From the NCBI GenBank assembly GCA_030584025.1, contig CP129487.1, positions 1,664,158 through 1,728,157 of the forward strand: 64,000 nucleotides of DNA. The letters are read 5' to 3'. Of the stretch, positions 36,432 to 39,149 are shown piece by piece. Each line of letters starts with the position of its first letter. Position 1 is the stretch's first letter. The notes under the pieces were generated by a model that saw only the letters and a program-made list of their open reading frames with translations, did no database searches and was not told where the DNA came from. Source of the stretch: Cyclobacteriaceae bacterium. GTDB lineage: Bacteria; Bacteroidota; Bacteroidia; Cytophagales; Cyclobacteriaceae. Made by a program: the position numbers and the translations under genes.

Positions 36432-36890
36432 ATGTTTACAAAAGCATGTGAGTATGCTATTCGGGCCGTGTTGTATGTTTCGTTAAAAAGCAATACTGAG
36501 AAACGACTTAGTATCCCTGAAATAGCCAAACAGATAGATGCTCCCCTTCCTTTTACAGCTAAGATTCTGCAAACCTTGGTTCGTGAAGGTATCATAAGCT
36601 CGATAAAGGGACCGAATGGAGGATTTTATCTTGATCCTAAGGCCAAGCCCATCCCGCTCAGCAAGATAGTTAAAGCAATTGATGGCAATGATGAGGTATT
36701 GCACAACTGTGCCTTGGGATTAAAAGAGTGCTCCGACAAATTTCCATGTCCGATTCATCACGAAATCAAGCGCTTTAAGGATAGACTCCGTAAAGTAATG
36801 CGAGAAGCAACGGTGCAATCGTTAATGGATGATTTGGATCAAGGCAAAACATTTTTAAAGAACGCGCGAACCCGCAAGTCAACCCGCTGA
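36432..36890 (+). CDS. Rrf2-family transcriptional regulator (NsrR/IscR-like; 3 Cys)
   Basis: 152 aa. MFTKACEYAIRAVLYVS...SIPEIAKQIDAPLPFTAKILQTLVREGIISSIKGPNGGFYL is the wHTH. The Cys cluster is CALGLKECSDKFPCPIH. Confidence 0.85.
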   Translation: MFTKACEYAIRAVLYVSLKSNTEKRLSIPEIAKQIDAPLPFTAKILQTLVREGIISSIKGPNGGFYLDPKAKPIPLSKIVKAIDGNDEVLHNCALGLKECSDKFPCPIHHEIKRFKDRLRKVMREATVQSLMDDLDQGKTFLKNARTRKSTR

Positions 36891-37304
36891 CCATTCCGCG
36901 TATGAATCGCGAGTTTCCCATAGCCTTAGGGCAGTGAGTTGGATATGTTCAGGCAATGATTCGGTTATTTCGTTTCGAATGAAAATTAGTAGGTTCTCAG
37001 CCGTAGGTTCGTATTCGAATGTAATCAATTTTTCCCATGGTACACTAGGTATTGATGCCAGGTATGCTTGCGAAAGAATCAGGGCGTGATCTAACTTGTA
37101 AATCACAGATGTCTGTACAATCGTTTTCAGGTCTTTGAAGTCCATTGCGATACCCATCCCGTCAATGAAATTTTCAGATCCCCGATTATCGGTAACACTT
37201 ACGTGTAATTCATATGAATGTCCGTGAATGTTAGCGCAAGCACCCGGATAGCCATGAATGGCGTGGGCGGATTCAAATCGGAAAATTTTGGTCAGCGTAA
37301 TCAT
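36879..37304 (-). CDS. queD: 6-carboxytetrahydropterin / 6-pyruvoyl-tetrahydropterin synthase family protein
   Basis: 141 aa. FRFESAHAIHGYPGACANIHGHSYELHV. It overlaps the end of the upstream HCO-like gene by 32 nt. Confidence 0.8.
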   Translation of the reverse strand: MITLTKIFRFESAHAIHGYPGACANIHGHSYELHVSVTDNRGSENFIDGMGIAMDFKDLKTIVQTSVIYKLDHALILSQAYLASIPSVPWEKLITFEYEPTAENLLIFIRNEITESLPEHIQLTALRLWETRDSYAEWSAG

Positions 37305-38670
37305 TTGACTTAAAAATAACGGGTTTTAATCCTTCCCCTACAGGACGCTCTCCGGATCTGACTAAGCAGGCCAAAGTATTTCTAAGGAGCGGGTAAACGA
37401 TAATAGAAAAAGCAACAAACATCAGCCCACCTGAAATGGCAAAAGCAATGAAATAGGGCATCAGGTTTTTCATCATCTGTCCGAAGGGGATCGCATCGAC
37501 ACTCATCTGCCAACGGGCACGTTGTACACCAGCTAAAAATAAGGAGGTAAGAAAAATGAGAAGAGAGACATTTACCAGCCAGGTAGCGTTAAAGATACGT
37601 GTTCGATATGGCTCAAGACTTTGGCAAGTATCGCTCAACAGGTCGAACGAGACGGCCAGTAACAGCATGGTGTTGATGCCGATGGTGGTCCCCATAACAT
37701 GCGCCACAGTAATGTGGGTGCCATGTGTGTACACGTTGATGGCTGGAACGGAAATGAGAATGGCAAGAAAAAGGTTAATAAAAATCCAGGCATCGGCAAT
37801 CATTAAAAATCGGTAGGGGAGGCTGTGTTTATTCTTCCGAGCAGCGGTTATAGAATCTTTCCATTTATAAATCAAGCGGCCGAGGATGAAAAGTTCTGTC
37901 ATGCTGACCAGGTAACCAATATGCCGGATATTAGGATTCACAGGTAACGTGTAAATATGGTGACTCCAGTTAAACATGAGATTGAACAAGCCTAAGAAAA
38001 ACAACGTAAAAGCCATGGGAGAACACGCATAACTTTTGTCTTGACTGATCTTCTCCATCAGGTAGATGCCTACTCCATAAACGAGCATGTTCCAACTGCC
38101 CACCAGAGATCCGTAAGATTTCCATTGCACGGTCATGTCACGCACAATATCCTTTCCAAAATAGGGCAATGTCCACAAGTATGATTCCGAAAATGTAAAC
38201 AAAAAGCCGAAAGCCCCGGTAAGCCACATCCAAATGTATACGGGTTGTTGCTTGAGTGTTTTGATTGAGCCTGTTACTTGAATAATAAAAAGTATCCAAC
38301 CAGCAGCCAGAAGGAGAGCAAATACAGGCGGAAATTCCCAGTACTCTCTGCCCCCGAATATTCCCAAAAAGTAACTGGATAAAATCAGCAATGCCGCCAA
38401 TACGAATAAGCCCAACTGAAGGCGTGATAACCAACTGGCGTATACTTTTCTGCCGGTATATTCCCGCAAATAAATCAACACGCTTCCTGTGGCAGTAAAT
38501 AAAATCCAGAAGACCACGGATGTAACGTGAAGAGGTCTTGTTTTTTCAAAAGACAAATAGGGTTTTAAGAACCCGGGAAGGATATATTGAAGTGAACCTG
38601 TTATTCCAAACAACATACCCGTTAGAAACAGCACAAGGCCGCTGAGAATAAGCCACCTCAGGGCATCCAT
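37273..38670 (-). CDS. Divergent haem-copper-oxidase (subunit I / NorB / CcoN)-like membrane protein
   Basis: The ORF extends to 38739, but the Met at 38670 (MDALRWLILSG) lies 1 nt after the cytochrome c stop. It has about 12 TM helices. Motifs present are TRPLHVTSVVFW (helix II His), WSHHIY (HH) and THITVAHVMG. No His occurs anywhere between the helix-II His and the HH pair. Confidence 0.65.
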   Translation of the reverse strand: MDALRWLILSGLVLFLTGMLFGITGSLQYILPGFLKPYLSFEKTRPLHVTSVVFWILFTATGSVLIYLREYTGRKVYASWLSRLQLGLFVLAALLILSSYFLGIFGGREYWEFPPVFALLLAAGWILFIIQVTGSIKTLKQQPVYIWMWLTGAFGFLFTFSESYLWTLPYFGKDIVRDMTVQWKSYGSLVGSWNMLVYGVGIYLMEKISQDKSYACSPMAFTLFFLGLFNLMFNWSHHIYTLPVNPNIRHIGYLVSMTELFILGRLIYKWKDSITAARKNKHSLPYRFLMIADAWIFINLFLAILISVPAINVYTHGTHITVAHVMGTTIGINTMLLLAVSFDLLSDTCQSLEPYRTRIFNATWLVNVSLLIFLTSLFLAGVQRARWQMSVDAIPFGQMMKNLMPYFIAFAISGGLMFVAFSIIVYPLLRNTLACLVRSGERPVGEGLKPVIFKSNDYADQNFPI

Positions 38671-38671
38671 T

Positions 38672-39079
38672 CTATTGTGGTTCAATGGTTCCACTAACGT
38701 TGCGTTTAAAAGTTTTCGGGTCTGCTTTTCCGGAAGCATCTACATGTGCTAAGAACGCAAGCAGGTGTTCCAATTCCTTTTCCGACATATCAAATGAAGG
38801 CATGACCGTTGTACCGCTGCTAACAAAAGCTTTAATGTAAAGCGAACCTTTACCTGTAGCCGAATAGACATTGGTAAGATCGGGCCCCAGGAATCCGCCC
38901 AACCCATAAAGCTGATGACACGCTGAACAGTTTCTTTCCTGCCAAATCATTTTTCCCACTGCAGGGTCAGCGCTTATCTGGGCGTCCACAACAACTGGCT
39001 GTGTATAAACAAACATCGTATAAACAGAGAATGACAAAAGCAACCCTACATACAAACCGTATTTATGACTTTCTTTCAA
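38672..39079 (-). CDS. Membrane-anchored monohaem cytochrome c (NorC/CcoO-position partner)
   Basis: 135 aa with an N-terminal TM helix. It has one CxxCH (CSACH) and a distal Met region (TTVMPSF). Confidence 0.75.
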   Translation of the reverse strand: MKESHKYGLYVGLLLSFSVYTMFVYTQPVVVDAQISADPAVGKMIWQERNCSACHQLYGLGGFLGPDLTNVYSATGKGSLYIKAFVSSGTTVMPSFDMSEKELEHLLAFLAHVDASGKADPKTFKRNVSGTIEPQ

Positions 39080-39129
39080 GATTTAACGTTTTTGACGGTT
39101 AGTTAATATAGCAGCAAAAGTAAATTAAA

Positions 39130-39149
39130 TAAAGACAATTTTATCTTTT
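39130..39149. promoter_or_regulatory. Candidate 20-bp operator flanked by -7 boxes on both strands
   Basis: TAAAGACAATTTTATCTTTT. The minus-strand TACTTTTG (plus strand 39115-39122) is 7 nt away. The plus-strand TAAATTTG (39154-39161) is 4 nt away. Confidence 0.5.

Follow-up and report, generated by a model that had tools for sequence, protein, structure and literature searches.

We analysed a 64,000-nucleotide stretch from the genome of a Cyclobacteriaceae bacterium (contig CP129487.1; hereafter the window), in which a minus-strand unit of three genes encodes a monohaem cytochrome c, a protein resembling the catalytic subunits of haem-copper oxidases (HCO) and a QueD/PTPS-like protein. We found that the HCO-like protein and its cytochrome c represent a large, as yet uncharacterised family of NorCB-like proteins whose ligand set is remodelled in an invariant Lys/Gly/Met pattern, and that it belongs to an NsrR-like regulon together with an enzyme of the nitric oxide dismutase (NOD) type. 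That the pair forms an active NorCB-type redox enzyme of a nitric oxide (NO) regulon appears very probable. The narrower proposal, a cytochrome-c-fed, NO-induced and NO-reducing enzyme with a rebuilt second-metal site, is the reading we prefer, tentatively and at slightly less than an even chance.

The three genes were arranged as one tight unit (Table 1), and their spacing agreed with the preliminary description of this DNA. The TAG stop codon of the cytochrome c gene (38674-38672) was separated by a single nucleotide from the ATG of the HCO-like gene, and the QueD-like gene started inside the 3' end of the HCO-like gene with an overlap of 32 nt. A longer listed open reading frame (ORF) from 38739 was merely an upstream extension of the HCO-like frame. 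The nearest relatives were uncultured Cyclobacteriaceae (Bacteroidota).

Classification with hidden Markov models placed the HCO-like protein in the COX1 family (PF00115; E-value 5.5e-32, 111.6 bits versus a gathering score of 34.8), and its score against the NCBIfam CcoN equivalog TIGR00780 (61.4 bits) was below the cutoff of 583. In profile comparisons with the PDB, NorB of the cytochrome c-dependent NO reductases (cNOR) was the closest solved relative (8.9e-23 for 4xyd_A and 7e-19 for 3o0r_B, followed by 7e-18 for CcoN). The AlphaFold2 (AF2) model built with the family alignment (pLDDT 82.8, pTM 0.85) showed TM-scores of 0.78-0.82 to CcoN and NorB in Foldseek, well above those to A- and B-family oxidases and to quinol-dependent NO reductase (qNOR), and its best matches were 9g6b_A and 3mk7_A (CcoN). 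The cytochrome c matched Pfam Cytochrome_CBB3 and Cytochrom_C, and its best solved relative was NorC (3o0r_C, E-value 7e-10), with an alignment running from the transmembrane anchor through the haem domain; exactly one CxxCH motif was present in 241 of 242 homologues. Two protein-based genome scans and one DNA-pattern scan yielded at least 280 HCO loci, at least 230 of which were non-redundant and full-length (neighbour counts among these 230 refer to genes within 5-6 kb, and only frequent neighbour clusters were annotated). In 79 of the first 80 loci and in 207 of the 230 non-redundant ones, the gene immediately preceding the HCO gene was that of the cytochrome c, and several relatives consisted of one polypeptide chain ending in FixO/CcoO-like and cytochrome c domains. 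Taken together, these findings indicate a redox enzyme that accepts electrons and is built like NorCB.

The ligands of the HCO-like protein were assigned by alignment with CcoN of P. stutzeri (3mk7_A) and NorB of P. aeruginosa (3o0r_B) and R. denitrificans (4xyd_A), using phmmer with the single sequence as well as a profile from 56 homologues. NorB numbering was verified against the printed alignment coordinates, and both approaches were concordant on the histidine positions. Four canonical ligand sites were retained, namely the helix-II His (His48 in RPLHVTS; NorB His60), the HH pair (His237/His238 in WSHHIY; NorB His258/His259) and the proximal His of the catalytic high-spin haem (His324; NorB His347, CcoN His345). 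The three-His CuB/FeB set was incomplete, as the helix-VI position of NorB His207 was occupied by Gly187 (QWKSYGS), and bis-His ligation of the low-spin haem was likewise lost, the helix-X partner of His48 being Met326 (AHVM; NorB His349). NorB Glu211 fell on a one-residue gap or on Val190, Glu215 on Asn194 and Glu280 on Glu259, and CcoN Tyr251, which is cross-linked in cbb3 oxidases, aligned with the invariant Leu231. The GREYWEF segment (Glu109 and Glu112) aligned with GREFLEQ of 4xyd_A and EYAELE of CcoN and thereby with the Ca2+-site Glu, Glu135 in cNOR, and the alignment with 3o0r_B shifted this loop. Direct reading of the sequence revealed no His between His48 and His237, so that no migrated ligand is on offer in helices III-VI; with the agreement of alignments to three solved structures, this ruled out both an alignment artefact and a migrated histidine. 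The preliminary description had already reported the retained helix-II His, HH pair and single helix-X His, the absence of any other His before the HH pair, the missing first CuB/FeB ligand and Met at the low-spin haem, all of which were borne out, and a rigorous alignment did not recover the full set of six histidines. Its account of the active site was exact for the Gly-for-His and Met-for-His replacements, but it had overlooked an invariant Lys184 and the Asn/Val residues in place of cNOR Glu211/Glu215.

Gly187 and Met326 are family traits and not decay. More than 3000 database relatives were found, the closest three independent proteins being 94-96% identical to the window HCO-like protein over 100% of its length. 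Two alignments of 56 sequences had a mean column identity of 65%, with His48, Glu109, Glu112, Glu162, Asp178, Gln182, Trp183, Lys184, Gly187, Asn194, Leu231, His237, His238, Glu259, His316, His324 and Met326 invariant. A profile search of 1.84 billion cluster representatives gave 862 matches at E <= 1e-3 and 176 at E <= 1e-30, and 70 full-length representatives of 50%-identity clusters were aligned to the profile. Fifty-eight of them constituted a main clade, in which the invariant residues listed above, Glu112, Asp178 and Leu231 aside, were conserved apart from one or two deviating sequences at some positions: Lys184 and Glu259 were kept in every representative covering them, Gly187 in 57 of 58, and Met326 in all covering the position except two, the only 2 of the 70 without it. 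Glu112, though constant among the 56 homologues, was variable in the wider set of full-length representatives. The remaining sequences formed a sister clade (about 140-170 bits; P0236-P0269, loci L281 and L282) with QWHxxD (His184/Asp187), Ala259, a triple HHH at 237-239 and the Met retained; a cytochrome c gene lay upstream, and the downstream genes encoded PAS/His-kinase proteins rather than NO functions. This three-way covariation (Lys184/Gly187/Glu259 in the main clade versus His184/Asp187/Ala259 in the sister clade) suggested that the three positions form one functional unit. Because position 184 lies one helical turn (i-3) from the canonical ligand, Lys184 is probably the stand-in for the lost His.

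Upstream of the unit, an operator and a candidate -7 box were located, as the preliminary description had noted. The motif AARGAYN6RTCYTT occurred four times in the window compared with 0.18 expected (none of 100 shuffles attained four), each time in a promoter region, and one-mismatch sites were found at 55862 (RIC / 4HBT-NadB) and 54161 (hemolysin-III gene). Of the first 80 related loci, 48 had a zero-mismatch operator in front of the cytochrome c gene, and the site upstream of orf601, a gene adjoining rrf2, recurred in 10 other loci. In 2.18 Mb of related loci, 105 exact operators were counted versus roughly 6 by chance (an estimate scaled from the window shuffle mean); some of them preceded hemerythrin genes and the gene of a membrane protein described below (mem415). 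The -7 box, whose promoter function is predicted from its sequence, sat inside the operator in most related loci, as TAATTTTG/TATTTTTG, and a fuller consensus, AARGAYA-N4-TRTCYTT, was derived here from Bacteroidota loci.

The regulator next to the unit scored 94.9 bits against Pfam Rrf2, and 37.9 bits against the NCBIfam NsrR equivalog, whose cutoff is 182. Its Cx6Cx5C motif was kept in 99 of 102 neighbouring Rrf2 homologues, and an Rrf2 gene was adjacent in 75 of the 230 HCO loci and in 44 of 80 NOD loci. The palindrome is a predicted binding site of this Rrf2/NsrR-like repressor, and the protein itself a predicted NsrR-like NO sensor. Both the gene content and the logic of the regulon would match an NsrR-type NO-sensing regulon, for which we infer repression by the Rrf2 protein and responsiveness to NO. 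Rrf2 regulators have been reported to be enriched in clade II nos clusters (PMC6264515), and NsrR-like regulators have been observed beside Bacteroidota nod genes (bioRxiv 10.1101/2023.11.21.568154). The system resembles known NsrR regulons in its three-Cys Rrf2 protein, its palindromic operator overlapping promoters, its predicted autoregulation and its targets, among them haem enzymes that handle NO, RIC/ScdA and genes of nitrate/nitrite respiration. However, the window Rrf2 protein is below the equivalog cutoff, and the regulon also has QueD-like, orf601, NadA/NadB, 4HBT and tryptophanase-like genes.

The window encodes a further HCO-type enzyme, a qNOR homologue of 785 aa. Compared with qNOR of G. 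stearothermophilus (3ayf_A), it carried the substitutions H560N (GISHNFYW), E581Q (FSTLQ) and, at the quinol site, E332G, with the other ligands kept; these substitutions are the signature of putative NO dismutases (Ettwig et al., 2012; PMC3413370), which lack an electron-input site (PMC3413370). This signature ruled out that the protein is a canonical qNOR, next to which the HCO-like gene would have seemed superfluous. Thus, the window has no canonical NO reductase, and two divergent HCO-type enzymes occur under one operator. The same signature (HN and Q) was present in every qNOR-like gene found beside a cytochrome c-HCO pair. When the NOD-type protein was used as query, at least 80 related loci were retrieved with 3-kb flanks; all 80 examined had the signature, and an exact operator lay within 250 nt upstream of 56 of 77 NOD-type genes. 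Within 3 kb of the 80 NOD genes, Rrf2 was found in 44 loci, the QueD-like gene in 21 and the cytochrome c-HCO pair in 18. The commonest compact layout, rrf2<queD<hco<cytc< | NOD>, consisted of two divergent operons (at least 12 loci), and rrf2<queD< | NOD> without the HCO pair occurred in at least 9.

Apparently in the same operon as the NOD-type gene of the window and downstream of it, two further genes were observed, one for a hemerythrin/DUF1858 protein of 226 aa and one for a protein of 616 aa with weak matches to class II (B12) ribonucleotide reductase domains; the latter may stand in for a radical enzyme without being sensitive to NO. A beta-eliminating lyase resembling tryptophanase / tyrosine phenol-lyase was encoded divergently from the NOD-type gene, with which it shared an operator region.

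The survey of taxonomy and synteny showed that the cytochrome c/HCO pair is recurrent and that the QueD-like gene accompanies it in a minority of loci. Carriers belonged to Cyclobacteriaceae, Chitinophagaceae, Sphingobacteriales, Saprospiraceae, Flavobacteriales and Weeksellaceae, and a few with identical motifs were found in Woeseiaceae and other Gammaproteobacteria. Among the cultured carriers were Sediminibacterium salmoneum NBRC 103935, Chryseobacterium koreense CCUG 49689, Flavobacterium croceum DSM 17960, Pedobacter sp. BAL39, Chitinophaga silvisoli and Aequorivita nionensis. Besides cytochrome c and Rrf2, the neighbours among the 230 loci were the QueD-like gene (51; directly downstream on the same strand in 27, or 27 of 213), the di-iron repair protein RIC/ScdA (47), orf601 (42), mem415 (39), the tryptophanase-like lyase (36), a small hemerythrin (30), 4HBT (29 loci), NadA and NadB (25 and 15) and NosF, NosY, NosD and NosL (25, 21, 16 and 12, respectively). 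Several loci had the order nosZ-nosL-nosD-nosF-nosY-cytc-HCO, with a nosZ of the Sec-type clade II (TIGR04246, 910 bits). The mem415 protein is a multi-transmembrane protein of 415 aa with an HxHxH motif and without Pfam or NCBIfam matches (for example, L238 3781-5028, L209 and L221). Absent from the window, its gene was observed beside nosDFY in the layout cytc-HCO-hemerythrin-(fasciclin)-Rrf2-mem415-RIC, with an operator upstream in 12 of 39 cases.

Based on these observations, the following mechanism may be proposed. Without NO, an Fe-S Rrf2 (NsrR-like) repressor would occupy the palindrome that overlaps or abuts the -7 box; NO would damage its cluster, and the operon would be transcribed. 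By homology, periplasmic electrons would enter through the membrane-anchored NorC-like monohaem cytochrome c and pass to a low-spin haem b on His48/Met326, whose potential may be raised by analogy with nNOR, and then to a high-spin haem b3 on His324, the presumed NO-binding site. At the second-metal site, His237/His238 and Lys184, with Glu259 close by, would replace the three His and the Glu, and the site would either bind a metal differently or supply a positive charge and a proton. As a guess, the reaction could be 2 NO + 2 e- + 2 H+ -> N2O + H2O and could serve detoxification; equally conjecturally, in many relatives the nitrous oxide (N2O) produced could go to the clade II NosZ encoded next door.

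Several points weigh against NO reduction by this enzyme. The reaction itself would be an extrapolation from homology and context, and the HCO-like protein lacks His207 and Glu211, the ligands that define cNOR, as well as Glu215. No biochemical study of any family member was found in the searchable literature, and the sole published functional guess for what is possibly the same clade is N2O reduction (PMC11214002). AF2 confidence was minimal at the HH motif (239-242) and at the THGTH loop (315-320), as is expected for cofactor sites modelled empty, and it is helix register and covariation that would place Lys184 near the site. Of 207 non-redundant loci, only 46 had an exact operator in front of the cytochrome c gene, and an NO or N2O marker gene was present in the flanks of only 115 of 230. 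The gammaproteobacterial loci had no labelled NO/N2O marker genes in their flanks, where neighbours were annotated by these labels, and none of the common neighbours, of which the frequent clusters were annotated, was recognised as a NorQ/NorD-type gene.

Other functions of the remodelled centre were therefore considered. As a general alternative, which we regard as unlikely, the family would be a widespread third solution to the HCO catalytic centre on the cNOR/cbb3 branch, with a high-spin haem, a two-His-plus-Lys site that may lack a metal or be metallated differently, and electron entry at a His/Met haem, and would act either as the electron-fed partner of NOD or as an N2O reductase other than NosZ. 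Taken on its own, a membrane-bound enzyme converting N2O to N2 appears improbable. Such an enzyme would be the cNOR-related HCO clade of Murali et al., which lies near cNOR, lacks the tyrosine, occurs in 293 GTDB genomes and was named a putative N2O reductase (PMC11214002); the window family is likewise nearest to cNOR, without the tyrosine and centred on Bacteroidota, and it is repeatedly positioned at the end of nosLDFY clusters. However, the complete clade II nosZ in the same clusters would make it redundant, and the regulon is of NO type (NsrR-like regulator, RIC, NOD) and not of N2O type. In addition, no homologue from Solitalea/Flexibacter canadensis appeared among the matches listed in the three genome scans (280 loci), and gNOR was stated to be the sole family with a replaced active-site His (PMC11214002), a misfit if the present family was in that set. 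The alternative of cooperation with the co-regulated NOD-type enzyme, either by removing O2 or another dismutation product or by oxidising NO towards nitrite, also has little probability. In its favour, every qNOR-like gene found beside the pair is of NOD type, and the pair, when found at NOD loci, is usually divergent from a shared operator region; NOD lacks the electron-input site that the HCO-like enzyme has, and His/Met ligation predicts a raised haem potential (as stated for nNOR; PMC11214002). On the nitrite route, electrons would leave via this high-potential haem and the cytochrome c. Yet about 95% of HCO loci have no NOD gene within 5-6 kb, the NOD loci in which rrf2-queD occurs without the pair are joined by others with neither, and co-regulation of two NO-handling enzymes needs no coupling. 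Leu231 at the position of CcoN Tyr251 further means that there is no cross-linked Tyr for four-electron O2 reduction, and NOD activity itself has never been demonstrated biochemically.

Loss of catalysis was weighed as well. A non-catalytic relative, serving as an NO/O2-binding sensor, a haem store or an electron relay, could be suspected from the loss of two of the six canonical His and of both catalytic Glu of cNOR (211 and 215), and from the uncertainty of AF2 around the cofactor loops. Nevertheless, strict conservation over hundreds of species extends to the remaining haem ligands, Lys184, Glu259, the Glu of the Ca site and several polar intramembrane residues, the NorC-like electron-donor subunit is obligatory and fused multi-haem variants exist, there is no signalling output domain, and sensing within the regulon can already be assigned to the Rrf2 protein; we thus consider a non-catalytic role very improbable. 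Practically no weight is given to the idea that a cbb3 oxidase or cNOR gene is decaying into a pseudogene, in favour of which only the missing histidines can be cited: the ORF is full-length, and the close relatives, the invariance of the substitutions and the mean column identity given above ruled it out. The preliminary description had left the choice between a new NOR/oxidase-like family with an altered active site and a non-catalytic relative. The former was upheld, and the latter is disfavoured by the invariant ligands and the constant cytochrome c partner (207 of 230 loci). The word 'new' holds only in part: hundreds of members are already present in databases, annotated as cbb3 subunit I or NorB, and the family may be the cNOR-related clade of Murali et al.

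The third gene of the unit, which the preliminary description had regarded as an unexplained pterin-synthase-fold gene, is indeed co-located and of the PTPS family (PF01242; 94.7 bits, E-value 5e-27), but it is not specific to the HCO-like gene and travels with Rrf2 and NOD. Its score against the NCBIfam QueD equivalog TIGR03367 (77.9) was below the cutoff of 89.25, and this divergent paralogue carries about 20 inserted residues. The motifs ESAH, C-x3-HGH and LDH correspond to the Zn-binding His, the catalytic Cys and the Asp-His pair, and Cx3HGHx[YF] was found in all 66 QueD-like homologues; with these residues retained, the protein looks like an active T-fold pterin enzyme. A role as a specific partner of the HCO-like protein was ruled out, as rrf2-queD accompanies NOD genes without the HCO pair; the gene belongs to the regulon and not to the oxidase specifically. 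We would guess that it takes over or strengthens a step of pterin or queuosine metabolism that is sensitive to NO, and, with low confidence, that it may be grouped with NadA/NadB, the ribonucleotide reductase-like gene, RIC and Fe-S assembly genes as a set that repairs or replaces NO-sensitive metabolism. A role for a pterin in NO chemistry may be kept as an alternative.

Other features of the window are included in Table 1. In the window, orf601 was split by a 1-nt deletion near 35142 (GGAATG to GGATG) into 34559-35146 and 35143-36384, whereas P0273, a near-identical protein that is intact, has SAGMNPRLF at this junction; the split reflects either a sequencing error or a strain frameshift. 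The orf601 product had no sequence match in Pfam, NCBIfam or the PDB, and in Foldseek its AF2 model (pLDDT 79.9) was most similar to enoyl reductases of the FabK/PfaD type, which are FMN TIM-barrel enzymes, and more weakly to nitroalkane oxidase. The Nar assignments were made from size, order and sequence reading, only the hemerythrin domain being from Pfam, and, given the exact operator 4, the same Rrf2 control appears to extend to nitrate respiration. The recurrence of NadA, NadB and 4HBT beside the HCO pair suggests that NAD synthesis, including the Fe-S enzyme NadA, takes part in the NO response. Another minus-strand cluster comprised genes for a Rieske protein, a likely 4Fe-4S protein (Cys-rich by sequence reading), a 738-aa molybdopterin oxidoreductase and a Pfam-less 351-aa protein, and was followed by genes for an SLAC1/TehA-type anion channel, a porin and an OsmC-like protein.

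Table 1. Positions of the genes, operators and promoter element in the 64,000-nt window.
Feature	Position	Strand	Description
Cytochrome c gene	38672-39079	minus	135 aa, TTG start, N-terminal transmembrane anchor, single CSACH
HCO-like gene	37273-38670	minus	465 aa, 12 transmembrane helices, ATG at 38670, N-terminus MDALRW
QueD/PTPS-like gene	36879-37304	minus	141 aa, T-fold
Operator 1, AAAGATAAAATTGTCTTT	39131-39148	minus	18-bp palindrome matching AARGAY-N6-RTCYTT, upstream of cytochrome c-HCO operon
Candidate -7 box, TACTTTTG	39115-39122	minus	perfect Bacteroidetes TAnnTTTG, 36 nt upstream of TTG start
Rrf2-family regulator	36432-36890	plus	152 aa, Cx6Cx5C, converges on QueD-like gene
Operator 2	34518-34535	plus	exact, upstream of orf601-rrf2 (predicted autoregulation)
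orf601	34559-36384	plus	608 aa in relatives, upstream of and co-oriented with rrf2, operator-preceded
NOD-type qNOR homologue	11799-14156	minus	785 aa, Pfam COX1 and NorB_cytochrome_c-like
Operator 3	14219-14236	plus	exact, divergent promoter region of NOD-type and tryptophanase-like genes
Genes downstream of NOD-type gene	9211-11797	minus	hemerythrin/DUF1858 protein and 616-aa protein
Tryptophanase-like gene	14251-15636	plus	beta-eliminating lyase
Putative NarGHJI operon	17391-25578	minus	dihaem cytochrome c, NarG-like (1204 aa), NarH-, NarJ- and NarI-like, hemerythrin-domain protein
Operator 4	25632-25649	plus	exact, upstream of dihaem cytochrome c / NarGHJI operon
Rieske/molybdopterin cluster	26853-31257	minus	four genes
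NadA	40355-41299		beside HCO operon
RIC/ScdA	55010-55753		divergent from 4HBT thioesterase-NadB unit (region 55010-57923), one-mismatch operator at 55862

Among known systems, the family shares with cNOR (P. aeruginosa 3o0r, R. denitrificans 4xyd) the order of a norC-like and then a norB-like gene, the membrane-anchored monohaem cytochrome c, the 12-helix fold (TM-score of about 0.8) and the best profile match among solved structures, as well as the helix-II His, the HH pair, the proximal haem b3 His, the Ca-site Glu, the equivalent of Glu280, the YTHGT loop and the lack of a cross-linked Tyr. It differs from cNOR in the Gly at FeB ligand His207, the deletion or Val at Glu211, the Asn at Glu215 and the Met at His349, in the invariant Lys at i-3 from the lost His and in a D..QW motif of cbb3 type. 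Moreover, its operon is predicted to be under an Rrf2 repressor and not under NnrR/Dnr-type activators, and no norQ/norD was recognised nearby. With CcoN of cbb3 oxidases it has in common the fold, the D-x3-QW motif in helix VI, the HH pair, the Ca-site Glu and, in some members, CcoO(FixO)-like/cytochrome c fusions, whereas Tyr251 and His207 are missing, Met replaces His347, and no ccoO/ccoP genes occur in the locus.

The family may be identical to the 'N2O red' clade of Murali, Hemp, Gennis et al. (2024; PMC11214002), which is also an uncharacterised group near cNOR on the C-family branch without the tyrosine, was linked by its authors to a Bacteroidota organism and has a comparable abundance in genome collections. 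That clade was proposed to be the sulfide- and acetylene-insensitive N2O reductase of Flexibacter canadensis (PMC11214002), whereas the context of the HCO-like gene points to NO; the comparison is one of descriptions, as the paper gives no residues. Precedents for single ligand changes exist, namely Asp for an active-site His in gNOR, a His/Met low-spin haem in nNOR and a His/Lys low-spin haem in some eNORs (PMC11214002). However, gNOR and nNOR are B-family-derived and have a cupredoxin-type subunit II, whereas the present family lies on the C-family/cNOR branch, has a cytochrome c subunit and shows the two changes together, with Lys at the metal site. No family combining both changes on the cNOR/cbb3 branch, or using Lys, was found described in the searchable literature.

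Surveys of denitrification and N2O count nor genes with models based on cNOR and qNOR, and the members of this family carry the annotation 'cbb3 oxidase subunit I' or 'NorB'; they are thus miscounted or ignored. The family is common, with at least 230 non-redundant loci in species-representative genomes, and its carriers are known mainly as N2O consumers via clade II nosZ. If the NorCB-type enzyme reduces NO, these organisms would also be N2O producers or complete NO-to-N2 converters; if it catalyses another reaction, that reaction would be new. Should it prove to be the partner of NOD or a non-NosZ N2O reductase, a new step of the nitrogen cycle would be present in abundant soil, freshwater and wastewater Bacteroidota. 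The defined operator makes the regulon directly testable. With Lys for a metal-ligand His, no Glu211/215 and a His/Met haem, the family also provides a natural experiment on which parts of the NO reductase binuclear centre are dispensable, and bears on the long-running cis/trans debate over NO reduction.

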